Positions 5,935 to 38,859 are shown, numbered from the stretch's first letter. The stretch: 64,000 bases of DNA from an uncultured Magnetococcales bacterium (GCA_963974105.1 CAXBBG010000002.1:127396-191395), one strand, 5' to 3'. Notes: a model not told the origin generated them from the letters alone. Translations and numbers: made by a program.

Positions 5935-6019
5935 TGGTGCGGATAATAGGAATCGAACCTACACATCTTTCGATACAAGAACCTAAATCTTGCGCGTCTA
6001 CCAGTTCCGCCATATCCGC
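5935..6019 (-). tRNA. tRNA-Leu (anticodon UAG), long variable arm, CCA encoded
   Basis: Reverse complement GCGGATATGGCGGAACTGGTAGACGCGCAAGATTTAGGTTCTTG...TATCCGCACCA. Acceptor GCGGATA/TATCCGC, anticodon stem CAAGA/TCTTG, loop TTTAGGT. Confidence 0.9.
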
Positions 6020-6048
6020 AAAACACCATATAACACAGCTTTAATAAA

Positions 6049-6125
6049 TGGGGCGAGCGACCGGGCTTGAACCGGCGACATCCAGCACCACAAGCTGGCG
6101 CTCTACCAACTGAGCTACGCCCGCC
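6049..6125 (-). tRNA. tRNA-His (anticodon GUG) with G-1, CCA encoded
   Basis: Reverse complement GGCGGGCGTAGCTCAGTTGGTAGAGCGCCAGCTTGTGGTGCTGG...CGCTCGCCCCA. Anticodon stem CCAGC/GCTGG, loop TTGTGGT, and the 8-bp acceptor stem typical of tRNA-His. Confidence 0.9.
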
Positions 6126-6285
6126 ATAAGTTGAGTTACTTTTCAGTCATCTCTCTTAAAGCTGGTTTGAGTTTTAACCAACTTTTAAACAAAGTGCAAC
6201 TAAAAAAAACGCAAAAACAAAAAAAAGTTTCATGTGCATTAAAATACCTTGCCAAATACACTGATTATGCTATGTTTTGATTGTT

Positions 6286-6362
<77 letters not shown>

Positions 6363-6604
6363 TTTAATCTAGATTTTGTCGAACTTTAGAGAAATCCCCT
6401 CAAAAAAGCCCGCTGTGTGCGGCGAATCGCCGAAACTGTTTTTCCGATGGACAGTAGAGAATATCCATTTCTCATGCAATATAGTGCGTTTTCTCTATGG
6501 GTTAATTTTTCGTCCCTCGGGCACATAGATCATAATCCAATTATAATTAGATTTATTTCAGATAAGTGGACCTTACTATAAAGGAATTTATATGAAGGAA
6601 TCGT

Positions 6605-6901
6605 TTAGAATGAAATTTCCAAAATCTTCGCAATAACATTGCGGACGTAGCGGCTGGAGCAATTTTCTCGTTCGGCAATAGTTTGTAGATTTTTACCTGC
6701 GAAATGTTCTTCTCGCCAAATGGTTCCTTGGACAATCTTTTTAATTTCAGTAGTGGATAAACTATCGATGTCATTTTGAATGTTTGATCTGATGACAATT
6801 GCACCTCTTTTTACACGCTTGGTTTGATAGGGTATAGTTAAATTTATTTCATTTGAAATAGTGTTGATATTCAGCTCTAAATACTCTTTAGCAAGTGCTG
6901 T
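6605..6901 (-). pseudogene. C-terminal fragment of a resolvase-family (serine) recombinase: start-less, N-terminal catalytic domain missing, extreme C-terminus truncated
   Basis: Own translation of the minus strand (a different frame from track ORF 6553..6804): TALAKEYLELNINTISNEINLTIPYQTKRVKRGAIVIRSNIQNDIDSLSTTEIKKIVQGTIWREEHFAGKNLQTIAERENCSSRYVRNVIAKILEISF*. The block ...W...F.G..L..IAERE..S.RYV... resembles, from memory, the HTH tail of alphaproteobacterial 'recombinase family protein' genes. Bounded upstream by TAG at 6904-6902, with no Met. Confidence 0.5.
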
Positions 6902-7062
6902 CTATTGGACAACTGGACAACAAAGTTTACAGTTGCTAAATATACCTATTAAATGAGTTGGACGCTCTTAAATGGGAATATGTTTCTATACGATTACAAA
7001 TCGTAAATTGAGGCGACAGCCTAAACAAATCATTTTTTTACCACCTCAAAATCACCAATAAT

Positions 7063-9072
7063 TTATTTCTTAATACCCCAATACTTATAGAGTTCAGTGC
7101 CTTTTTGTGGAATGGTGACAGTATTTTCTCGTTGACAGAAACCGTTGATCAAGCCTAACAAACCAATAAGAACAAGGGCACGAGCCAGTTGGCCTGCGTA
7201 CGGGAACTTGTCTTTGTACTTACCTGCACTTCTCCAAATTGAAATATAAACAAATGCACAATAAAAAAGGACGAACCAATAGAAAATAGCTACAACCCCC
7301 ATGCCTTTTAAGGAGTAAATAAAACTATCGTAATTCGTATTAATATAGTTGAATAGTAAAGGGAATGCTACAAGTCCAAAACCTGCAAAAACCCAGAAGG
7401 TTACCTTTAGAGGGATATCTCCATTAAAAAGCTTGATGAAAAAGTTTTTCTTATCGCTTTTAGTGTCGTTTGATACTCGAACTTTAGAAGTTTCTAGGTT
7501 TTTATATCCAGTAAAAAAAATCCTATATATTTTAAGGCTTAAGATACTAAATAAGATGGCAAGCATTGGGCTCATGTAATATCTATAACGTTGGTTTTCA
7601 CCAATTTCTAATAATATAGAAGTCGTTGTTACGTAACCAATAATATAAAGCATTGCCCAGTAAACTATTGCTTGTGGGTCTTTATTATAACTTTTATGAC
7701 AAGCTACACAGAAGCCATAACCAATAAGTCCTAATAAAATAAACGGTGTAAACCACGGGAAATTAGTCCAGCCATTATATTCAATGTATTCCCAAATATA
7801 ATTGGGCATATCATGGTTTTTAGTCCATCGCTCTCTCAAGATTTGACTTTGTGACATGCTTGTCCAATTCATACGTCCAGTGGTTATAAAGCTCCAAGCC
7901 CTGTCCCAGGGTTCGGTCGCGTTTTTACCGTATGTATGAAACCACTCGCTAGGTGAAAGCATGAACAGATAAAGTGCTGCTTGAGTGCCTTTAAGATAAA
8001 CCTCTGGGTGTGTCTTGAGCATATTTAAAGAGTTTTTTTCTGCTTCCTTAGAAAAAGTCGCCATTGCTAAATGATGTAAATTGGATGTTTTCCCATCGGC
8101 GTGCTTAACCATATCGAGAATAGGTATTCCAGTAGATTCTTTTACGTCTTCAAAATTAGGATAAGCTTCCACTGGGGTAAATGGTTTGATATGTGCATTA
8201 GGTGTAATCACACCTTCTTTGATAAAATTATTTTTTTCCTCGGGCGATGTTGGGTAGTACAACATGATATTAGAAATGCTCAAGCCGCCCCAAGTTGAAG
8301 CTGCAAATTGTCCTGTTTGCATGTATGTTTTCCCATACCATGATAAAATAATGCACAATGGTATAATACACCCAAGTAAAATTTTCCAACGATACTTACC
8401 TATAAATAAAAACAATAGCAAGGCAGCAACCACAAAAAATACAAGATGAAATATACTGTGCAACAGTGATACTGCTACCAAGCAAAAAAAGATGTAGCTT
8501 GCATTTTTATAACTAGGTTTATCTACAAATTTAATTAAATTAAATATCGAAAGGGTGATCAAAACAGTTATAGGAAAAGTGTATAAAAAATAACTTCCGT
8601 AATAAAGAGAGTTTGCACTAATACTAAATAAAAATGCGATTCCAGCAGACCAGTAGGCTGGAACACCTAGCCTTAATTGAATATTATAAAGCGTAAGCAT
8701 AAGTATAACACCTAGCACAACAAATATAGGTAAGGCTGCAATCCAGTATTGTTCAAAAGGAGACAGGTTTATAACAAGCCAGGTGAAAATTGCAAATAAA
8801 GGAGGTTGGGCATGCATACTCCATAAATTTACCCAAAAATCATTTTGCATAAGGTTAATGTCCATCATAAACATTCCGCCTATTGTTGCTTCCATGTTAA
8901 TTCCTACAAATAAAATGCAGGCTCTTACTAAGAGATATAAGGCTGTAAGAATTAAAGGGATTTTATAATGAATAAAGTTTTTATCTGTAGATAGTGCTGG
9001 CATCATACGAAAAAAATCACAGCATTTTTGTTTGACTTTATTTATGGATAAATAAGGGGTTTTTAGCTTCAT
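7063..9072 (-). CDS. GT-C fold polyprenyl-phosphate-sugar-dependent glycosyltransferase (ArnT/PMT_2/GtrC-like) with a fused C-terminal small membrane module
   Basis: 669 aa, more than 12 TM helices. The first periplasmic loop carries acidic residues followed by HAQPPLFAIFTWLV (the H-PPL signature of the PMT_2/ArnT family), and there is a large periplasmic loop around residues 270-420. It is divergent from a GT2/GtrA operon. The last ~115 aa (FFIKLFNGDIPLKVTFW...IWRSAGKYKDK...) look like a separate small-membrane-protein family fused in frame. Confidence 0.65.
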   Translation of the reverse strand: MKLKTPYLSINKVKQKCCDFFRMMPALSTDKNFIHYKIPLILTALYLLVRACILFVGINMEATIGGMFMMDINLMQNDFWVNLWSMHAQPPLFAIFTWLVINLSPFEQYWIAALPIFVVLGVILMLTLYNIQLRLGVPAYWSAGIAFLFSISANSLYYGSYFLYTFPITVLITLSIFNLIKFVDKPSYKNASYIFFCLVAVSLLHSIFHLVFFVVAALLLFLFIGKYRWKILLGCIIPLCIILSWYGKTYMQTGQFAASTWGGLSISNIMLYYPTSPEEKNNFIKEGVITPNAHIKPFTPVEAYPNFEDVKESTGIPILDMVKHADGKTSNLHHLAMATFSKEAEKNSLNMLKTHPEVYLKGTQAALYLFMLSPSEWFHTYGKNATEPWDRAWSFITTGRMNWTSMSQSQILRERWTKNHDMPNYIWEYIEYNGWTNFPWFTPFILLGLIGYGFCVACHKSYNKDPQAIVYWAMLYIIGYVTTTSILLEIGENQRYRYYMSPMLAILFSILSLKIYRIFFTGYKNLETSKVRVSNDTKSDKKNFFIKLFNGDIPLKVTFWVFAGFGLVAFPLLFNYINTNYDSFIYSLKGMGVVAIFYWFVLFYCAFVYISIWRSAGKYKDKFPYAGQLARALVLIGLLGLINGFCQRENTVTIPQKGTELYKYWGIKK

Positions 9073-9248
9073 TTTTAAGAACGCTCACGTAAATTGATAA
9101 TACTTATTTTAATAAGCGCACATTAAAACACACGCGTAAAAAAATTAAAATCTTAAATTAAATTTTTTATAATGGGGGGCTATATTAATTATAGTCATAA
9201 TTCAAATTTTATGATAATTTCGTCATGTAAAATAAAGGAAATAATTCA

Positions 9249-10259
9249 ATGCCTCAGAATAAAGAAACTACCGTTTTTGATAAAAATATTGTTTTTTCAG
9301 TTGTTGCGCCTGTTTATAATGAAGAAGAAGCTATTCATATTTACATTGAAAAAACACTTAAAACCCTAAAAGAAATGGGTGTTAATTACGAGCTGATATT
9401 GGTTAATGACGGATCTACTGACAACACACTAGAAATTTTAAAAACTTCCGCACAAAAAGAACAATGCGTTAGAGTTATTGAACTTTCTCGTAATTTTGGT
9501 AGAGAAATTGCCATGACAGCAGGGCTTGAACACTCTGTTGGTGATTATGTTGTTATTATGGATAGCGATATGCAAGACCCACCTGAACTGATCCCTGATC
9601 TTCTACAAAAGCTTTTAACTGATGAGCTCGACATTGTTTATGCTGCTCGCCAGTCTCGTAATGGCGAAACCTTCCTTAAAAAATTATCCTCCAAATTGTT
9701 TTATCGTGTAGCTTCAAGTATGACTGGATTAAATATCCCACAAAATGCTGGAGATTTCCGGGTTTTTTCACGCAAAGCTTTAAATTCTATTTTAACGATG
9801 CGAGAGCATAACCGTTATCTAAAAATGCTTTATGCGTATGTTGGTTATAGGGTTGGAAGTGTTGCCTTTGATAGGCCTGAAAGGTTGGCAGGAGAGTCAA
9901 GCTACAATTGGAGCTCACTTCTAGGTGCGGCAACAGACGCAATCTTCGCCTTTTCAAATAAACCATTAAGAATTATGAGTTTAGTAAGTATTACCATCAG
10001 CTCATGTTTGTTTGTTTATGCATGCTATATTTTTGTAACAAAAATTATGGGCGCAAATGTTGTTGAAGGTTGGACTAGTCTTATGTTGCTCATGTCCTTC
10101 ATGTTTTCAATTCTATTTGTTTTTCTTGCTTTAATTAGTGAGTATATCTCACGTATTCTTATTGAATGTAAAAATCGACCTCTATACTATATACGCGATG
10201 AAACAGGTAACGCCGTTTTTGACATTCCAGAAATGTTACAAAATGAAAAGAAAGATTAA
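9249..10259 (+). CDS. GT2 family polyprenyl-phosphate glycosyltransferase (GtrB/ArnC/DPM1-like)
   Basis: 336 aa; VVAPVYNEEEAI, LVNDGSTDNT, SRNFGREIAMTAGLEHSVGDYVVIMDSDMQDPPELI (DxD plus QDPPE), and two C-terminal TM helices as in GtrB/ArnC. Confidence 0.88.
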   Translation: MPQNKETTVFDKNIVFSVVAPVYNEEEAIHIYIEKTLKTLKEMGVNYELILVNDGSTDNTLEILKTSAQKEQCVRVIELSRNFGREIAMTAGLEHSVGDYVVIMDSDMQDPPELIPDLLQKLLTDELDIVYAARQSRNGETFLKKLSSKLFYRVASSMTGLNIPQNAGDFRVFSRKALNSILTMREHNRYLKMLYAYVGYRVGSVAFDRPERLAGESSYNWSSLLGAATDAIFAFSNKPLRIMSLVSITISSCLFVYACYIFVTKIMGANVVEGWTSLMLLMSFMFSILFVFLALISEYISRILIECKNRPLYYIRDETGNAVFDIPEMLQNEKKD

Positions 10260-10657
10260 TGACCTTAACTCAATTTCAGAAATTATTTAATTTCCGACAA
10301 TTTATTTTATACTCATCAGTCGGGATTTTAAACACCATTGTAGGTGTTAGTTTTATGGCTTTGGGTGTTTACCTTGAATGGTCTTATGTGGCCTATACAT
10401 TACTTGGTTACAGCATTGCTTTTTGTGTTAGCTTTACCCTTAATTTTAAGGTTACATTTAAAGTTCAGGGCAAAACAAAAAAGAGAGCTATACGTTTTTT
10501 GTGCTTTAACCTTTTAAACCTAGCCTGTGCACAGGCCTTACAAATACTTCTTATTGAAAAATATGAGATTCAGGAATATGTTGCAGTTGCAGCTACCATG
10601 GTACTTTATACAATTGTTGGATTTATCGTTAATAAGAAATTTGTTTATAATGACTAA
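10259..10657 (+). CDS. GtrA family membrane protein (putative lipid-linked sugar translocation)
   Basis: 132 aa, 4 TM helices, N-terminal FRQFILYSSVGILNTIVGVSFMAL typical of GtrA. Its start overlaps the GT2 stop (TAATG). Confidence 0.8.
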   Translation: MTLTQFQKLFNFRQFILYSSVGILNTIVGVSFMALGVYLEWSYVAYTLLGYSIAFCVSFTLNFKVTFKVQGKTKKRAIRFLCFNLLNLACAQALQILLIEKYEIQEYVAVAATMVLYTIVGFIVNKKFVYND

Positions 10658-10670
10658 GAAAGATAAGAAT

Positions 10671-11372
10671 ATGCCTAAAAGTTACTTACTTACAGGTGCA
10701 ACATCTGGTATTGGACTTGCTATTTATAAGTCGCTTCATGAACAAGGTCATCATATTACCGTTGTTTTAAGAGATAAAAGACGCGCCGAAGTTTTGCCTT
10801 ATAGCCCGCAAAATATCATAGAGGCAGACTTTGCAAACCCTCTCCAAGTAGACAAATCCTTTAAAGGTTTTGATACACCTCTCGATGGTATTATAAATGC
10901 TGCAGGTATATTACAAGGGAACAGCATATTTGAAAGTACCCCCGAAACTTTAAGTGAGCTTTTCAATATTAATGTCATTAGCCCGATCTTGATGATTAAG
11001 CACACATCATCACAGCTAAGTAAAGGTGGGGCGGTAATTTTATTTGGTTCTATTTCTGGCCACAAAGGAAGTTATGATGATGCTTACGCAGCAAGTAAGG
11101 GTGCTATACATAGTTTAGTTCGCTCGCTCTCTTTAAAGTTAGCACCTAATGCACGAGTGGTGGGTATTGCCCCTGGAATGACTTTAAATACAGGGATGAC
11201 AAATAGCCTGATTGAGGGACGCTTGGAACATAATATTAAACTTATCCCTATGCAACTTGCCGGAGACCCAGGAGACATTGCAAGCCTAACAAATTATATC
11301 CTCAGTGATGAGGCTCAATTTATGACTGGAAATGTTATAGATATTAATGGAGGGCAATACCTTAGATCATGA
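10671..11372 (+). CDS. SDR family NAD(P)-dependent oxidoreductase
   Basis: LLTGATSGIGLAI (TGxxxGxG), NAAG, and catalytic S...YAASK. The track ORF from 10527 is an out-of-gene extension overlapping gtrA. The start is ATG 10671 (MPKSY) or ATG 10650 (8-nt overlap with gtrA). Confidence 0.85.
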   Translation: MPKSYLLTGATSGIGLAIYKSLHEQGHHITVVLRDKRRAEVLPYSPQNIIEADFANPLQVDKSFKGFDTPLDGIINAAGILQGNSIFESTPETLSELFNINVISPILMIKHTSSQLSKGGAVILFGSISGHKGSYDDAYAASKGAIHSLVRSLSLKLAPNARVVGIAPGMTLNTGMTNSLIEGRLEHNIKLIPMQLAGDPGDIASLTNYILSDEAQFMTGNVIDINGGQYLRS

Positions 11373-12478
11373 GTACAAATTTTGATATTGCTATTGTTGG
11401 CGGCGGGTTGTACGGTTGTAGAACGGCAATACTTCTTGCCCAAAAAGGAAAAAAAGTTGTTCTTCTTGAGCAAGAAAACTCTCTTTTAAGTCGCGCAAGT
11501 CGCAATAACCAATCTCGGATTCACAATGGCTACCATTACCCACGTAGCTTAATGACGGCTATTGGTTCTCACCGTAATTATGAAAGATTTAAAACAGATT
11601 ATTCTGCATGTGTGGTTGATGACTTTAAGCACATTTATGCCATTGCTGGGCATACATCTAAAATTAACCCTTATCAATTCAAATCATTTTGCAACGTTGT
11701 AGGCATACCTTTGTCTGAACCTACAAAACTACAACGAGGTCTTTTTGATTTTAATCGGATAGATGAAATATTCATTGCCGAAGAGGCCTCTATTAATACA
11801 GATATGTTTAGTGATATTGTTACTAAACAAGTGGAAGCTGAACCTAATATTACGATACACTTAAACAAATCATGTACACGTGTACATGTGGAAAACTCGT
11901 ATGTATGCTTGAAAAACTCAGGCGAAGATATTAAAGCAGGCGGTGTTATTATAGCTACCTATGCAAACCTGAACAACTTCCTAATTAGTAGTGACCTTAA
12001 ACCCCTTGGCTTGAAATTAGAACTTACTGAAATGCCTCTTATTAAACGTCCTCAAGATCTACAACAAACTGGAATAACGGTAATGGATGGCGCATTCTTT
12101 TCTGTAATGCCATTCGGTGGAGAGGGGTATGCAACTTTAAGTCATGTACACTATACACCTCACGCTTCTGCTCTAGCTGGCAAAGGCGATGCTTATAAAG
12201 CTTTAGAAAATTATAAGCAGAGCCACGGATCTCATTTCCCTTTCATGCGAAATGATGCCGCACGTTATATACCTAGTATGCGACAAGCAGAATACATAGA
12301 TACTATTTTCGAGGTTAAGGCTATTCCAGTTAAAAATGAATTAGATGATGGCCGACCTATTCTTATATGTGAGCATGTCGGAGCACTTGGAGGGGCTGAA
12401 CCATTCGTTGTTTCTTTGCTAGGTTCAAAGCTTGATACTATTTATGAGTGGGAATTGGCCCTGAATGAAAAATATTAA
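11369..12478 (+). CDS. FAD-dependent oxidoreductase (DAO-type Rossmann fold)
   Basis: 369 aa; N-terminal DIAIVGGGLYGCRTAILLAQKGKKVVLLEQ dinucleotide-binding motif. ATGA overlap with the SDR stop. Confidence 0.8.
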   Translation: MSTNFDIAIVGGGLYGCRTAILLAQKGKKVVLLEQENSLLSRASRNNQSRIHNGYHYPRSLMTAIGSHRNYERFKTDYSACVVDDFKHIYAIAGHTSKINPYQFKSFCNVVGIPLSEPTKLQRGLFDFNRIDEIFIAEEASINTDMFSDIVTKQVEAEPNITIHLNKSCTRVHVENSYVCLKNSGEDIKAGGVIIATYANLNNFLISSDLKPLGLKLELTEMPLIKRPQDLQQTGITVMDGAFFSVMPFGGEGYATLSHVHYTPHASALAGKGDAYKALENYKQSHGSHFPFMRNDAARYIPSMRQAEYIDTIFEVKAIPVKNELDDGRPILICEHVGALGGAEPFVVSLLGSKLDTIYEWELALNEKY

Positions 12479-16830: not shown

Positions 16831-17883
16831 TTAACCTTCATTTTTAAGTGCATCGTTTTCACGATGTTCTTTGTTTGGTGCGACGCCATCGCTGGTTTCC
16901 CAGTCATTGTCGAGCGCAGGGCTCTCAAGTTTGGAACCTTGCTCACCTTTTTTACCGGCTTGAGCCTCTATTTCCTCACGTGAACTACCATTCACAGGTA
17001 AGGTAATGCTTAACCCGCTACCAGGACGCATACCTTTGCCTTTACCAGAGCTTTCTCCATCAGCTTCACCCTTTTCTTTGGCCTTTTTCATGGCTTCAAT
17101 TTGTTGCTTCATAATTTCTTTGCCTAAACCGTCTAACGCTTTTTTAGCATCGCTGGTTTTGTCTAAAGAGTCCTCTGACTTTGCCATTTCTTTGGCAAGA
17201 TCCTCCTTCTCTTTCTCTGTCATTTTCGACAAAGCGTCTATGGCATTGATTTTATCAAGCATATCTTTTTGTTTTTTGAGCTTATTGTACCATTGGCGTA
17301 CTTCCTTTTGCTCCTGAGCTTCGCGTTGTTCTCGCTTTTGCTGTTTTGCCTTTTCTTGAGGGGACTGCTTACTTGGGTCTTTTTCTTTAACCTTTTTAGG
17401 TTTTGGAAAAATATCAAACGCACAATAATGTTCCTCATCAGAGCCAGCACCTTCAAACGCTTTAACACGGATCCGTAAAACGCCTTCTTGAAGCTTTATA
17501 TCCTGTAAAGGGAAATAATATCGCTTCAGTTTTGGGAATTTTGCCATAGCAGGTTCACCATTTATAAGCATTGGCTTTCCTGTTGCTGGATCCACTACTT
17601 GTTTAAATTCATAAAGGATGTCGCCATCGGCATTGCGGTCAAAAACTTCACATTGCATGTCAGCTTTACCAATATATGCACGCTCTAATACGCGCGGATA
17701 TACCAGAATGCTAGCCAGCAATATGCAGCTCATAACTATAATGGCAGCATTTGCTTTGGTGCCTTTTACTTGGGACATATTCGCCGAAAGAAAAGCAACC
17801 ATAGATAAAATTACCGTACACCCAACAACAACAATTAAAGTGTTGACGCTGATGTATTCGGCAATGCTATTAAAAAAGTCCAT
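16831..17883 (-). CDS. Hypothetical membrane protein: 2 N-terminal TM helices, small Cys-containing domain, long Lys/Glu-rich helical region (TolA-like architecture)
   Basis: 350 aa. TM helices at about aa 15-34 and 46-63, and a ~95-aa domain with 2 Cys. A highly charged stretch follows (KPKKVKEKDPSKQSPQEKAKQQKREQREAQEQKE...EAMKKAKEKGE), then a Gly/Ser-rich and acidic tail. Third gene of the MotA-like operon. Confidence 0.6.
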   Translation of the reverse strand: MDFFNSIAEYISVNTLIVVVGCTVILSMVAFLSANMSQVKGTKANAAIIVMSCILLASILVYPRVLERAYIGKADMQCEVFDRNADGDILYEFKQVVDPATGKPMLINGEPAMAKFPKLKRYYFPLQDIKLQEGVLRIRVKAFEGAGSDEEHYCAFDIFPKPKKVKEKDPSKQSPQEKAKQQKREQREAQEQKEVRQWYNKLKKQKDMLDKINAIDALSKMTEKEKEDLAKEMAKSEDSLDKTSDAKKALDGLGKEIMKQQIEAMKKAKEKGEADGESSGKGKGMRPGSGLSITLPVNGSSREEIEAQAGKKGEQGSKLESPALDNDWETSDGVAPNKEHRENDALKNEG

Positions 17884-27865: not shown

Positions 27866-30427
27866 TTATCCGCATGTAATATCGCCAATTTGCATAAATT
27901 GCTCATCTTCTTTTATAGGAGGGAGCGCAAATACACATTGGTTTTTAGCTGTATTTATGTATGGCGTTTCTGAGCCAAGTAATTCCATTTGAAAGAAGCC
28001 ATTACTGTCAGTTGTTGAAAAATCTTTCAAGCCTTCAATGCGTTGCCAAGCAATAGGGTTGCCATTGGTGTCAACGGCGCGCCCCATATATAGATATACC
28101 TTGTTAACTACCCATTCGTGTTGGGCAATGTTCCCAGGGAATAAGGTGATTTCAACAGGTGCTGTATTGTAGTCAAGCATGGCGCTTGTTTTGCTAGAAG
28201 GTGCAATGGTGAGTTTACCGCCAGAGTATTCTGGAATAGAAAAGGCAATATTATCTCCAACTTTTCCGTATGCTTTTGGAATACCATTGAAGTTAATAGA
28301 AACATCTTCACCTATGGCGTTACCCTTTAACTTTACAATGATGTTATTTGTTTGCCCACCCATGCTTGGTACTAAGACAGAGCTTTTTTCTTCGGCATCT
28401 AAAATAGAGTCACGTGTCGCAAGGAATGTTGTGTCCATGGTATAGTCAAGTTTTTGACTGTGTGGTCTATCATTGCGGTCTACGTTGTTGTAGTTTGCAG
28501 CAAATGACATGCTTTCCATGTCATGTGTAGCGGCAATATTTGTTGTGTAAACATCAAGGTCATTACTAATTGAAGCTGTGTTATTTACATTGAATGAAGA
28601 GCCAAGGGAGTTCGCCCTGCGGTTGTTATATGATAAGTCTTGAGCAAGTTTATTATATGTTTGGCTTGTATTGCTGGCATTACCCGCAGAGCTTTTGTAT
28701 TGCCATTTTGTTAATGGTTTTAAGTATTGATATGTTAAAAACACACCGTGGTTTGTGTAGTTACGTCCACGGGTAATGTTGGCCTGTGTTGAAAGCCTGT
28801 GTCCGTTATTATAGTACATGCGCCAGTTAACAGAAGGGCCAAATGTGTAAGTTGATTGTGTATTTAAGTTTTTAGCACCTTGAGCGTTGAGCGACCATGT
28901 AAAGTCATTGACGGTATAACGCATACCTGCCACAACATTTGTTCTTTTTATGCCAATGTTGTTTAAAAAGTCGTATTCATCAAGTCCTGTCGTGTCATGG
29001 TTGTAACCAAGGATGGCGTGTTGTGCGCGCACAAACCATGATGCTTTATCTGATTGATGGACAGGGTTATATTCAAATCCACCTGTAAAGGAAAGGTCGT
29101 TTTCTGATGTCATTGTGAATGCGGCATCGTATTTATAGCCATTGCCAAAGAATCCGCGTAATTTAGGTTCAAAGGCATAACCTGTATCTACACCATAAAG
29201 GTTTGCACTTAATTCAAGGGCATCGCTCAATCGCGTTGTATATTCAAATTGATAAACACCTTGTGAAAGCATATCGAGTCCGTCACGTTGGATACCTGCG
29301 GTGAATCTAAACTGTGGTCTTTCTCTTGAAATAAGCGAGTTGTCTTTTTGGAAAAATCGACGTTCCTCTGTCACGGTACCTGTATCATCTGTAATTTCAA
29401 TACGGATATCATATGAGCCTGTTGGGAATCGCTTTGTATCAATTGTGGTCATACCAAATGGGTGCTGTTCAGAATAAATGATCTGACTTTCGTTGCGATA
29501 AATGCGCACTTGTCCACGCGCGGGGATAAAAATTTCAACTGGCGTTGCTTTTAGGCTTGCATCATCACTATTATTTCTACCGTTACTTTCAATACGCACA
29601 CCATATATATTGGCACCTGACGTTAAGTTAACACCGCCAGTGTTTAACATACCAGCAGAGTAGATATTGCTGCCTAGGTTATGTTCTATTACTGCATTTG
29701 CAAAGTCATAACCTTCATTTTTAATGTAGTTACCTGTCGCTTTAGCACCCCAGTTACCACGGCTCAGGGCCATGCTGTGGTATAAGCCAAGAGAATCTCT
29801 TGTTAGAGGGTCAAAGTCGGTTGTCCCTGTCATGCGCATACGACTTGAGAATGAAATGTAATTCGCTGTACTGCGCTTTATAGATTTTGATTCAGTGGTT
29901 TCGGCAAGGGCTTGGGCTTGTGCTACTTTAATAGAAAGGGTAAAGTTTTTTGGATCTACAGAAACTGAACCAACATTCTCAAGTTCTTTGCTTTCACCTG
30001 CATATATTCTTCCCGTTAACAAAGGTAAAAAAGCTTTGACATCTTTTACTTTTGGCATTTGATCTAATACATCAACAGGGTTATCAATTTCAACCCATTT
30101 ATCTGTGTAGGTTACAAGTACACTACCAAAATAATTACCAACGGCATAAATATCAAATACCATTGTTTCAGGCGGCATTTCTTCTGAAATTTTCAGTGCA
30201 AGTTGCTTGGCTTTTTCAAGGCTTGTTGTAGGTTCTTCAACAATTTTTTTAGGTATTGCTGTTATATTGTTAGGTTCTGCTGGTGCTTCACCTGCAAACA
30301 TGTCTGGTACATCTGCTGCTTGGGCCGTTAATGCAGAAAAAAGGCTCGTCGCCAATAAAGGTAAAGCGCCCAGCGCGACGGTTTGTTTTTTATTCGGTGA
30401 TGTGTAAATAAAGCGGTTATTCTTCAT
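27866..30427 (-). CDS. Fimbrial outer-membrane usher-like protein
   Basis: 853 aa, signal peptide ending TAQAADV, beta-rich with many aromatic/Gly-X alternations, C-terminal ...TTDSNGFFQMEL...C...GDITCG. The size, its position between the chaperone and pilin genes, and the 11-nt overlap with the chaperone gene fit an usher. The family (Csu-like versus TcfC/CooC-like) was not resolved. Confidence 0.65.
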   Translation of the reverse strand: MKNNRFIYTSPNKKQTVALGALPLLATSLFSALTAQAADVPDMFAGEAPAEPNNITAIPKKIVEEPTTSLEKAKQLALKISEEMPPETMVFDIYAVGNYFGSVLVTYTDKWVEIDNPVDVLDQMPKVKDVKAFLPLLTGRIYAGESKELENVGSVSVDPKNFTLSIKVAQAQALAETTESKSIKRSTANYISFSSRMRMTGTTDFDPLTRDSLGLYHSMALSRGNWGAKATGNYIKNEGYDFANAVIEHNLGSNIYSAGMLNTGGVNLTSGANIYGVRIESNGRNNSDDASLKATPVEIFIPARGQVRIYRNESQIIYSEQHPFGMTTIDTKRFPTGSYDIRIEITDDTGTVTEERRFFQKDNSLISRERPQFRFTAGIQRDGLDMLSQGVYQFEYTTRLSDALELSANLYGVDTGYAFEPKLRGFFGNGYKYDAAFTMTSENDLSFTGGFEYNPVHQSDKASWFVRAQHAILGYNHDTTGLDEYDFLNNIGIKRTNVVAGMRYTVNDFTWSLNAQGAKNLNTQSTYTFGPSVNWRMYYNNGHRLSTQANITRGRNYTNHGVFLTYQYLKPLTKWQYKSSAGNASNTSQTYNKLAQDLSYNNRRANSLGSSFNVNNTASISNDLDVYTTNIAATHDMESMSFAANYNNVDRNDRPHSQKLDYTMDTTFLATRDSILDAEEKSSVLVPSMGGQTNNIIVKLKGNAIGEDVSINFNGIPKAYGKVGDNIAFSIPEYSGGKLTIAPSSKTSAMLDYNTAPVEITLFPGNIAQHEWVVNKVYLYMGRAVDTNGNPIAWQRIEGLKDFSTTDSNGFFQMELLGSETPYINTAKNQCVFALPPIKEDEQFMQIGDITCG

Positions 30428-36690: not shown

Positions 36691-38859
36691 CTATTTTAGT
36701 TTTCCAGCTTCGTAAAGTGGTTTAAGCTTAGCGACATATTCAAGCGAAGCGGGGAAGTCGGCCTGAATTTCCAAAGATTTTAAGAAGTGGTTATAAGCTT
36801 CTAAATTACGTCCAATGTAAAGCAATGAAATGGCATATACCGCGTGCGCATTTGGAGTGTAATATGAAAGTTCTAGAGCGCGTTTGGCATGTTCATGTCC
36901 GCTTACAATAAGCTTTGTTGCAAGTCCTTTATCACCTGCGTTTAATACACGCTGCCCCTCACGCATTTTTAACATGGCAATGTTTATCAAGGTATTTTGT
37001 GCGTATGGGTCGTATTTTAAAGCTTCTTCTAAGGTTTTAATGCGGTCTTCGTATGATATAACAGCTTTACTGTTTGGTTTAGTGCTGTCATGTGCCATGG
37101 TTATAACGCCATGAATTTCACGCTCGCGCGGGTTAAATGTATAATAATTGTGAGACTTGTTTATAAGGTACAAAGTTGTATCATTATTTTGTCCAATTCT
37201 TGAAAGGCCAAGCGCGGGCTTTAGATATTTTGTACCTTCACGGCGCATGTAGTTGTCGTAAGTTGTAAATATCAGCGCTGCAAAGACAATAACGCCAAGT
37301 GTTGCTGTAACGACTTTGTTTGGAAGTGGTGTTTCGAGTGCCCATCCTTTATGTGCATTTTTTATATTCAGGGCATATAAGCCTGTCATTATGCCTGCTA
37401 ATAGCCAAAGTACAGCTGGTGCTGTTGGCATTTGTAGAGGGAAGTCACCTAAAGAATTGACGCACATACCGCCAATGGCGAGTAATATGAAGAATGAAAA
37501 GACCTTTGTTTTTTCTGTGGTTTTTTCATTTTTTCCAAGGCGCCATGCCATGATAAGCGGACTTAAAAAGATGAATAAGTGGGCAGCGCCACCAACAACG
37601 CCTAATTCAACAAAAGCTTGAAACATGTCATTGTGCATGCGACGTGGTCTAGCTGCAAGGTTGTAACCTGTTTTTGGTGTAAGGACCGATGACTTAAAAT
37701 ATTTTGGGTAAATCGTATGGAAACCACCAAGCCCTACACCAAAAGGGTAGTCCATGATGATATCTACACCGTTAATATTGTAAGCAGATCGCACGCTAAG
37801 TTCACCTTCACTGATACCGCCAATGCTTGAAAATTGTTGGCTGACTGTTTTGTCCATAGAGTGGAACGTTTGTCCTGTTCTGTTTAAATTACTATTGTAT
37901 GAAGATGCCCAAAAAATAATAAGTAGAGATGTTAAAATGGCAATAATTTTAGCCATATTAAATTGTGATAAAACGGCTTTGCGTTGTGGTTTGTTAATGC
38001 TGAGCCAAAAAATAGCAAAAACGATAACGGCTATGGCACTTATCCAGCTACCACGTGAACGCGTGTAAATAAGGAATATACTTGCCAGTGTGAAGGCTAT
38101 GCTTGAAAGTATAAGCCTGAAGTTTCTTTTACTTGTAAGCATTAAATAAAGCATAAGGGGGATGCACATCACCATGTATGAAGCGGCTAAATTTTTATTC
38201 GCAAAGGCGCCAGCAGGTGGTGCTGACTGTTGGAAAAAGTTTATAAATGTTATCTTATCAACAAAGGGTAAGTAATTTGCAATTTGCACATCACTTACAG
38301 CAAAAAACTGTAAAATACCCAACATGGCGTTAAAAGCAACGCCAATAGCTAAAAGCCAAGCAAGGTTTCGGTACCAAATTTCGTGGCGTAAATGTAAGGC
38401 AAAAGTAAACACCAAAGCGTAGCCTACAAGGTTTTTAAGAAACCACCAGTTGTTTGGTAGGCTTAAACCCCATATCATAGTCAGAAAACCAAAAAACACA
38501 GTGATGGCAACAGCCCACGATGTAGGTGTGAGCTTTAAGTTTAGTGTGAACTTTTCACCTTTTTTGCTTTGCATAAAACAGTGTGTCAAAAAGACGCAAA
38601 TAAGGGCAAGGCCTGTAAAGTGCATCATATACCAACGCATGTCACCCGCAACTTCAGGTACGGCAAAGTCGTAAGCGAAAGGAATTGTTAATATAAGGGT
38701 TGAAATGGTAAAGCGTGCAAATGTGTAATACCATTTTGCATTTTCATCGTTATTTACAGGTGCCATAAATTGGCGCACGGGCTTAAGCAACCCAGCAAGA
38801 TATATAAACATCACCATTTTTAATACGAATGGGAAATATGAAATTGTAAAAGTATCCAT
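36691..38859 (-). CDS. O-antigen ligase/polymerase family (Wzy_C) membrane protein with C-terminal TPR domain
   Basis: 722 aa, about 12 TM helices. YTRSRGSWISAIAVIVFAIFW and a periplasmic loop with RRMHNDMFQAFVELG (the R...H motif of Wzy_C/WaaL-type proteins). The last ~170 aa are TPR-like (YDPYAQNTLINIAMLKMREG..., AYNHFLKSLEIQADF). Confidence 0.7.
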   Translation of the reverse strand: MDTFTISYFPFVLKMVMFIYLAGLLKPVRQFMAPVNNDENAKWYYTFARFTISTLILTIPFAYDFAVPEVAGDMRWYMMHFTGLALICVFLTHCFMQSKKGEKFTLNLKLTPTSWAVAITVFFGFLTMIWGLSLPNNWWFLKNLVGYALVFTFALHLRHEIWYRNLAWLLAIGVAFNAMLGILQFFAVSDVQIANYLPFVDKITFINFFQQSAPPAGAFANKNLAASYMVMCIPLMLYLMLTSKRNFRLILSSIAFTLASIFLIYTRSRGSWISAIAVIVFAIFWLSINKPQRKAVLSQFNMAKIIAILTSLLIIFWASSYNSNLNRTGQTFHSMDKTVSQQFSSIGGISEGELSVRSAYNINGVDIIMDYPFGVGLGGFHTIYPKYFKSSVLTPKTGYNLAARPRRMHNDMFQAFVELGVVGGAAHLFIFLSPLIMAWRLGKNEKTTEKTKVFSFFILLAIGGMCVNSLGDFPLQMPTAPAVLWLLAGIMTGLYALNIKNAHKGWALETPLPNKVVTATLGVIVFAALIFTTYDNYMRREGTKYLKPALGLSRIGQNNDTTLYLINKSHNYYTFNPREREIHGVITMAHDSTKPNSKAVISYEDRIKTLEEALKYDPYAQNTLINIAMLKMREGQRVLNAGDKGLATKLIVSGHEHAKRALELSYYTPNAHAVYAISLLYIGRNLEAYNHFLKSLEIQADFPASLEYVAKLKPLYEAGKLK

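Follow-up and report, generated by a model that had tools for sequence, protein, structure and literature searches.

A gtrABC-like glycosylation cassette with a GlpD-like flavoprotein and a short-chain reductase that may remodel a lipid-linked sugar

Epimerization of a sugar while it is attached to its lipid carrier is known from few systems only, namely DprE1/DprE2 of mycobacteria and ORF13 of Citrobacter. The first of these, a flavin adenine dinucleotide (FAD) oxidase acting with a short-chain dehydrogenase/reductase (SDR), is a major tuberculosis drug target. The pentofuranose systems of Citrobacter youngae O1 and O2 start from phosphoribosyl pyrophosphate (PRPP) through a polyprenyl phosphoribose synthase, and the O2 SDR ORF13 converts undecaprenyl phosphate (Und-P)-linked Ribf to Und-P-Xylf (Kelly et al. 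2024, PMC11127046). DprE1/E2 homologues accompany Araf-containing glycans, and the same authors state that they are aware of no further epimerase acting in O-antigen side-chain glycosylation (PMC11127046); Bacillus versions of the PRPP-based systems carry FAD oxidoreductases together with NAD(P) epimerases (commentary, PMC11194591). Here we describe a five-gene cassette at positions 7063–12478 of a 64,000-nt stretch of DNA from an uncultured Magnetococcales bacterium (GCA_963974105.1 CAXBBG010000002.1:127396-191395; the whole stretch is called the window below). In this cassette a GtrABC-like set of membrane glycosylation genes is joined by genes for a flavoprotein and an SDR. We propose, at a probability of about one half, that it carries out gtrABC-like extracytoplasmic glycosylation in which a GlpD-like flavoenzyme and the SDR oxidize and then reduce a sugar on the lipid carrier, following the logic of DprE1/DprE2 from an independent origin.

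Like the three-component GtrABC systems (Shigella/Salmonella serotype conversion, CsbB-GtcA-YfhO, ArnC-ArnE/F-ArnT), the cassette encodes a family 2 glycosyltransferase (GT2) with a transmembrane hairpin, a small membrane protein, which here is GtrA, and a large polytopic putative glycosyltransferase of the C superfamily (GT-C). It also shares with them a compact, mobile organization near tRNA genes, insertion sequence (IS) elements or an integrase, and a GT-C slot that is filled by unrelated proteins (a PMT_2 protein in one related locus), much as in the case of serotype-specific GtrC. It differs from these units in that its operon holds two cytoplasmic redox enzymes, and in that its putative GT-C comes from a family that no model covers and that does not match ArnT, PMT_2 or GtrII in sequence. 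With mycobacterial Rv3789-DprE1-DprE2-AftA the cassette has a functional set in common, consisting of a GtrA-family protein, an FAD oxidase, an SDR reductase and a neighboring GT-C (putative here), as well as the proposed logic of oxidation followed by reduction via a keto intermediate on the lipid-linked sugar. However, the window flavoprotein has a DAO/GlpD fold whereas DprE1 has the vanillyl-alcohol oxidase (VAO)/FAD_binding_4 fold, and entry is through a nucleotide-sugar GT2 rather than through a PRPP-dependent UbiA-type prenyl-phosphate phosphoribosyltransferase. The likeness of the window SDR to DprE2, namely SDR motifs and an overlap with the FAD gene, lies at the level of superfamily and arrangement only. 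The Citrobacter systems likewise have an auxiliary cytoplasmic SDR, and there ORF13 changes the Und-P-linked sugar before flipping and GT-C transfer. These systems use a MATE flippase, a GT136 GT-C and either a single GalE-like SDR or true DprE1/E2 homologues; the window cassette differs from them in entry enzyme, flippase (GtrA), flavoprotein fold and putative GT-C family. Our literature search found no paper on this flavoprotein family or on the GT2-GtrA-SDR-FAD arrangement, the closest being the pentofuranose three-component work.

Gene content of the cassette

The open reading frame (ORF) map of the window shows one minus-strand gene, encoding a 669-aa polytopic membrane protein and putative GT-C (7063–9072), which is divergent from four plus-strand genes. 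The latter encode a 336-aa GT2 polyprenyl-phosphate glycosyltransferase of the ArnC/GtrB/DPMS type (9249–10259), a 132-aa GtrA-family small membrane protein and putative flippase (10259–10657), a 233-aa classical SDR (10671–11372) and a 369-aa FAD-dependent oxidoreductase of the DAAO/GlpD (GR2) fold (11369–12478). The initial annotation was right about the five ORFs, the order in which they lie and each of the three junctions of the operon, and Pfam bears out its domain identities for four of the five genes (GT2, GtrA, SDR and FAD). GT2 and GtrA overlap by 1 nt (TAATG) and the SDR and FAD genes by ATGA. The GtrA/SDR junction had been left as either an 8-nt overlap (ATG at 10650) or a 13-nt gap (ATG at 10671), and both options are real, the SDR open frame spanning 10527–11372 with candidate starts at 10527, 10650 and 10671. 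As all ten aligned orthologous SDRs begin 1–4 residues before TGxxxGxG, we settled on ATG 10671; the protein thus begins MPKSYLLTGATSG and the junction is a 13-nt gap. The divergent genes are separated by an AT-rich intergenic region of 176 bp (9073–9248), in which an AAGGA ribosome-binding site precedes the GT2 start. Promoter-like hexamers in this spacer (plus strand, 9145–9173; minus strand, 9217–9188) are consensus matches only and are fewer than in shuffled sequence, and the promoter and terminator scans gave no enrichment over shuffled sequence.

The GT2 matches PF00535 (Glycos_transf_2, E = 5.9e-38) and, at full length yet under the equivalog cut-offs, the NCBIfam models PgfS (3e-69) and ArnC (1e-50). 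Over 310 residues, the C-terminal two-helix transmembrane hairpin included, it shares 31% identity with E. coli ArnC (E = 7e-51), and its DSD motif aligns with the DAD of ArnC, giving the combination of GT-A domain, DxD motif and membrane hairpin that marks a GtrABC-type GT2. Because the model matches are full length and the identity to ArnC includes the hairpin, we assign it to the polyprenyl-phosphate glycosyltransferases of the ArnC/GtrB type. The entry enzyme is, as first suggested, a nucleotide-sugar GT2 that takes the place of a PRPP-dependent prenyltransferase. The small membrane protein belongs to PF04138 (GtrA_DPMS_TM; E = 2.2e-17, 63.8 bits against a cut-off of 26.1) and has the makeup of the small four-helix membrane component of GtrABC.

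The SDR matches PF13561 (adh_short_C2, E = 1.1e-35) and carries the motifs TGATSGIG, NAAG, Ser and YAASK. Its matches in NCBIfam and the PDB are generic and FabG-like (also YmfI-like), those in NCBIfam all being under cut-off. A conserved Arg after strand 2 suggests that the cofactor is NADP(H), and the C-terminal nucleotide-sugar-binding extension of extended SDRs is absent. Neither the SDR nor the flavoprotein has a signal peptide and both start directly with the Rossmann fold, which argues that both are cytoplasmic; any action on a lipid-linked sugar would therefore have to take place on the cytoplasmic face, before the flip by GtrA. By the same argument, Kelly et al. place the action of ORF13 on the cytoplasmic face prior to flipping (PMC11127046).

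The flavoprotein matches PF01266 (DAO; E = 3.5e-12, 46.9 bits against a gathering cut-off of 27.9), and its AlphaFold2 model has a predicted local distance difference test (pLDDT) score of 91.8. When this model was searched with Foldseek, glycine oxidase was the best match by E-value (8e-21) and E. coli GlpD the best by TM-score (0.77–0.79). NikD, sarcosine oxidase, L-2-hydroxyglutarate dehydrogenase and GlpO came next, with D-arginine dehydrogenase also among the best; all 50 best matches listed are of the DAAO/GlpD type and no nucleotide-sugar enzyme is among them. The protein accordingly has a GR2 FAD-binding domain and an interleaved substrate-binding beta-sheet domain. By hhalign it resembles GlpD with 90.8% probability over the N-terminal 200 residues only, and this alignment pairs the family motif NQxRxHNGYHYPR, which runs from N47 to R59 (N47-Q-x-R-x-H-N-G-Y-H-Y-P-R59), with SSKLIHGGLRY of GlpD. 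Shared with the GlpD/GlpO/L-2-hydroxyglutarate dehydrogenase branch are thus the two-domain fold and the N-terminal (R/S)xxxxxxIHxGxxY motif region. In contrast, the C-terminal cap domain of GlpD is absent and the family has invariant residues of its own (N47, Q48, R50, H52, H56, Y57, R59, H259, Y262, R329, K354 and D356). GlpD is a monotopic membrane enzyme that oxidizes the secondary alcohol adjacent to a phosphate ester, with quinone as electron acceptor. Oxidation of the 2'-OH of a prenyl-phosphate sugar would be chemically analogous to this reaction, which we put forward as an analogy and not as evidence.

Two other identities were considered for the flavoprotein and rejected. It is not a homologue of DprE1, because the fold is wrong: Pfam finds only Rossmann-type FAD families, the VAO/FAD_binding_4 signature is missing and no DprE1 is among the 50 best Foldseek matches, in agreement with the initial annotation, which had already set a DAO-type fold against the VAO fold of DprE1. 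A ring contraction like that of UDP-galactopyranose mutase is also rejected, as this enzyme matches the N-terminal dinucleotide-binding motif only (E ~0.3) and does not appear among the 50 best fold matches.

Recurrence of the cassette and neighborhoods of the flavoprotein family

The same cassette recurs in other genomes, which puts the five-gene arrangement far beyond chance; the five genes make up one functional unit that is both conserved and mobile. In syntenic loci, the flavoproteins are 45–63% identical to that of the window. GT2-GtrA-SDR-FAD follows a divergent homologue of the 669-aa protein in an alphaproteobacterial metagenome-assembled genome (MAG; locus L005) and in locus L089, and it follows a divergent, Pfam-recognized PMT_2 protein in a Hyphomicrobiales MAG (L003). 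The same four genes are found in L088, GtrA thus keeping its position in L003, L005, L088 and L089. Two further loci have GT2-SDR-FAD, followed by a Wzx-like flippase in L090 and lying within a polysaccharide cluster in L091. A profile of the 669-aa family detected members no more than a few kb away from the operon in L005, L089, L090 and, apparently split, in L088, and no member in the other branch of the flavoprotein family. In L088 the homologue matches the profile as two overlapping ORFs (8145–8747 and 8605–9801), suggesting a frameshift, a pseudogene or an assembly error. The FAD-adjacent SDRs are orthologous in 10 loci from different lineages, where the SDR-FAD pair follows a polyprenyl-phosphate GT2, and the SDR/FAD junction is −4 nt in six of these loci and −1 nt in two.

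Several features suggest that the cassette was horizontally acquired and give it the look of a tRNA-associated island: a tRNA cluster lies nearby, the GC content is low, and IS, Abi, integrase and prophage-like genes are found at related loci. The minus strand of the cluster (window 5935–6362) carries tRNA-Leu(tag) and tRNA-His(gtg), its plus strand tRNA-Arg(tct), and the ~700 bp that separate the cluster from the cassette (6363–7062) contain no convincing ORF. The GC content of the cassette is 0.30–0.36 versus 0.38–0.40 in the flanks. IS transposase genes stand on both sides of the cassette in L003 (3101–3863 and 9663–10887), Abi_alpha, phage integrase, HNH, DNA methylase and Vsr genes adjoin it in a prophage-like setting in L005 (9329–16901), and Abi_alpha adjoins it in L089 (2262–3005). 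Flanking the window cassette itself, a search for att-type direct repeats gave only short AT-rich matches that are probably due to chance, and no integrase was found.

The wider flavoprotein family is large, with 5401 homologous clusters at E ≤ 1e-3; JGI labels homologues 'glycine/D-amino acid oxidase-like deaminating enzyme'. In a search that covered one genome per species, at least 566 relatives turned up in many phyla, including Helicobacter, Legionella santicrucis, Brucella pseudogrignonensis, Paraburkholderia, Saccharibacteria, cyanobacteria, Acidobacteriota and one Methanosarcinales archaeon. Neighborhoods were tallied for the 80 best non-redundant loci out of the ~5400 homologues, the neighbors being labelled by iterative hidden Markov model searches on called ORFs with query proteins that were first anchored with Pfam and NCBIfam. 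An ArnC-like GT2 is directly adjacent to the FAD gene in 40 of the 80 loci, within two genes in 51 and within five genes in 61. A large polytopic membrane protein lies within five genes in 59/80, and an NAD(P) oxidoreductase lies within the same distance, or is fused to the flavoprotein, in 53/80. The initial annotation had made its proposal depend on co-conservation of the SDR and FAD genes with gtr-like genes, and this is what we find, both in the 10 orthologous loci and in the 61 of 80 with a nearby GT2.

The NAD(P) partners of the flavoprotein are of three unrelated types. The classical SDR, as judged from a neighbor-joining tree, marks the clade to which the window belongs and is also seen in a basal pair of loci and in a single isolated locus. 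A GFO_IDH_MocA protein has its own gene in Helicobacter trogontum (L026), and its NAD-binding domain is fused to the N-terminus of the FAD protein in two Helicobacter loci (L049, 8738–11146; L034, 1791–4073). In the main branch, the partner is an extended-SDR-like Rossmann protein of ~260 aa with weak similarity to PF01370, accompanied in 30 loci by a xylose-isomerase-like TIM barrel to which it is fused in the Methanosarcinales MAG (L033, 11008–12588). Among curated families, the TIM barrel best matches 5-keto-L-gluconate epimerase and D-psicose 3-epimerase, enzymes that epimerize a carbon beside a carbonyl. Keto-sugar-intermediate chemistry fits, as the main-branch pair comes with a barrel resembling keto-sugar epimerases. 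The main branch usually adds a second GT2, which lacks transmembrane segments and best matches dolichyl- and polyprenyl-phosphate hexose synthases (AglJ, PpgS, ArnC), and a small EamA/SMR-like or GtrA protein. Altogether, the neighborhoods are a consistent signature that links keto-sugar chemistry with a synthase of lipid-phosphate sugars, a flippase and a polytopic transferase.

A cluster with such components is seen in Legionella santicrucis (L051, 8967–13949), where an ArnC-like GT2, the FAD oxidoreductase, the ~260-aa Rossmann protein, the TIM barrel, an EamA/SMR-like protein and the second GT2 without transmembrane segments are encoded together, next to rhamnose-biosynthesis-like genes. 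This type is widely conserved (also L054, L066, L077, L050 and L024) and has very large polytopic membrane proteins at its flanks. The L051 Rossmann protein has no significant Pfam match, and its orthologues match PF01370 only weakly.

The 669-aa membrane protein

The initial annotation called the divergently encoded 669-aa protein an 'ArnT/PMT_2-like' GT-C. At the sequence level this does not hold: no Pfam (including PF13231 and PF02366), NCBIfam or PDB sequence match was found, a family profile showed no similarity to solved structures, and hhalign of the family alignment against E. coli ArnT returned a probability of 0.5%. A word-indexed search found 11 homologues. When 1.84 billion cluster representatives were searched with a profile, 3982 relatives came up, 1869 with E ≤ 1e-30, and the 150 best are mostly ~500 aa long. 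As there are 3982 relatives and yet no match to a family model, the protein represents a large family without a covering model. Among ten members that were scanned, one distant member has a sub-threshold PMT_2 match (E = 0.0018) and one has a TPR tail. A set of 77 large membrane proteins neighboring the flavoprotein genes was also compared with Pfam, giving PMT_2 in 11, PMT in 3 and no match for most, and jackhmmer seeded with the L003 PMT_2 protein matched only itself among the 77.

Support for a GT-C identity comes from the fold level. The AlphaFold2 model has a pLDDT of 74 and is good over approximately residues 30–520, the conserved core. In a Foldseek search of the PDB with this model, GT-C enzymes made up 31 of the 35 best matches, with weak scores (E no better than 3e-3, TM-scores of 0.2–0.36). 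The top match was ArnT (5f15, E = 3e-3), followed by STT3, AglB, PglB, Pmt1/2/4, ALG9, ALG3, PimE, AftB, AftD and EmbA/B. The family has a near-invariant D71 in the loop after the first transmembrane helix, where the model puts short helices, an arrangement that presumably fits the catalytic-loop architecture of GT-C enzymes; a QPPL motif lies at residues 89–92. Since the support is a predicted fold without a sequence-level match, we treat the protein as a likely, not an established, GT-C.

The C-terminal extension of the protein (~aa 523–669, ~145 residues, encoded on the minus strand at 7063–7506) was delimited by alignment and by the model, with pLDDT below 50 over most of 523–669. It has several further predicted helices and a counterpart in no homologue, the homologues ending near aa 525. 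Fusion of a small membrane protein and an addition specific to the lineage are two possible origins.

Proposed pathway and alternatives

In the scheme we favor, the GT2 would load a sugar from a nucleotide sugar onto undecaprenyl phosphate at the cytoplasmic face, as its family assignment implies. The GlpD-like flavoprotein would oxidize a secondary hydroxyl of the lipid-linked sugar to a ketone, with the electrons probably going to quinone or O2, and the classical SDR, probably NADPH-dependent, would reduce the ketone from the other face to give the epimer, by analogy with DprE1/DprE2. GtrA, judging from its family, would flip the product, and the 669-aa putative GT-C may pass the sugar to an envelope acceptor such as lipopolysaccharide (LPS), pilin or another surface protein. 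If this scheme holds, the flavoprotein would be a convergent solution, non-homologous to DprE1. The interpretation in the initial annotation, from which the scheme takes its outline, is partly supported, by co-conservation, the DAO fold, the entry by GT2, the lack of signal peptides, the recurring flavin/NAD(P) pairing with two fusions and the TIM barrel of the main branch; the 'ArnT/PMT_2-like' label that came with it does not hold for the sequence.

A number of observations weigh against the scheme. The likeness to GlpD is at the fold level only (~15% identity), and the phosphate-binding Arg54 of GlpD aligns with a His. Most characterized DAO-family enzymes oxidize C-N bonds, not sugar hydroxyls. 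An ArnC-like GT2 is missing within five genes of the FAD gene in 19 of the 80 loci, some of these on short contigs. L088 has no divergent membrane protein upstream, and its downstream homologue looks split. The GT-C assignment draws on a medium-confidence model and weak Foldseek scores. Finally, gene order taken alone would fit an Und-P-sugar and a nucleotide sugar equally well as the substrate.

This last point leads to the main rival, which we consider unlikely: the flavoprotein and the SDR would tailor a soluble nucleotide sugar before GT2 loading, making this an ordinary gtrABC/arn-like system with its own precursor genes. Most bacterial sugar tailoring does take place on nucleotide sugars, as in the arn pathway, where arnA and arnB stand beside arnC, and PF01370, which the main-branch NAD(P) partner weakly matches, is a family of nucleotide-sugar epimerases. 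However, the window SDR is a classical, FabG-like one without the extension that binds nucleotide sugars, the 50 best structural matches of the flavoprotein include no nucleotide-sugar enzyme, and the flavoprotein is most often the immediate neighbor of the lipid-loading GT2.

It is rather improbable that the flavoprotein is instead an amine oxidase or dehydrogenase, deaminating a lipid- or nucleotide-linked amino sugar to a keto sugar that the SDR would reduce to a hydroxyl or that would itself be transferred. The best Foldseek E-values do go to C-N oxidizers (glycine oxidase, NikD, sarcosine oxidase, D-arginine dehydrogenase), and the JGI label of the homologues speaks of deamination. Set against this, the top TM-scores are to GlpD, the best NCBIfam matches include glycerol-3-phosphate oxidase and L-2-hydroxyglutarate oxidase, both C-OH oxidizers, and no conserved aminotransferase or deacetylase appears in the neighborhoods. 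We give still less weight, and very little in absolute terms, to modification of the polyprenyl carrier rather than the sugar, for example saturation or oxidation of an isoprene as in dolichol-type maturation. When eukaryotes make dolichol, polyprenol is acted on by an SDR together with a reductase, and both window proteins would be associated with membrane lipid in such a role, but the DAAO/GlpD two-domain fold, the absence of any geranylgeranyl-reductase-type enzyme from the 50 best matches and the keto-sugar-epimerase-like TIM barrel of the main branch point to sugar chemistry. That the SDR and FAD genes are metabolically unrelated and merely adjacent to glycosylation genes is scarcely credible and largely refuted by synteny: both come from very large, functionally diverse superfamilies and every curated family match is under cut-off, but the overlapping stop/start, the orthology and the order behind the GT2 are kept in 10 loci of different lineages, on mobile elements, and a GT2 lies within five genes in 61/80 loci of the family.

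Returning to oxidation and reduction of the sugar on its lipid carrier, a generalization to the whole flavoprotein family can be offered tentatively. A GlpD-like family of more than 5000 clusters, spread across phyla, may oxidize polyprenyl-phosphate-linked sugars to keto intermediates, as functional analogues of DprE1 without homology to it, and three interchangeable partners would then finish the reaction. Bacteria and some archaea would in this way make rare sugars on the carrier for periplasmic glycosylation, by a general route not described so far. If true, this would be a second, evolutionarily independent flavin/NAD(P) solution, starting from a nucleotide-sugar GT2 and found across many phyla. 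Thousands of 'glycine/D-amino acid oxidase-like' genes and a family of ~4000 orphan membrane proteins would thereby gain a function, rare sugars yet to be discovered would be expected on LPS, pili or cell walls, and glycoengineering would gain new parts. The wider family is carried by Helicobacter, Legionella, Brucella/Ochrobactrum, Paraburkholderia, Saccharibacteria and cyanobacteria, among others, and several carriers are in culture, such as Brucella pseudogrignonensis CCUG 30717, Legionella santicrucis SC-63-C7, Helicobacter trogontum ATCC 700114 and Paraburkholderia rhizosphaerae.

Elsewhere in the window, two further loci belong to pathways that could supply an acceptor for the cassette sugar: a CS1-type (TcfC/CooC) pilus usher (27866–30427) and a 722-aa Wzy_C protein resembling O-antigen ligases and pilin O-oligosaccharyltransferases (36691–38859). 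The usher and the Wzy_C protein also indicate that the cell is Gram-negative. The window lies on a 394-kb Tara Oceans metagenome scaffold, and exact-sequence look-up of seven window proteins gave no named relative at 90% identity. A 350-aa protein without a Pfam family (16831–17883) has a single hydrophobic segment at its N-terminus, and its C-terminal half is long, rich in Lys and Glu and of low complexity.

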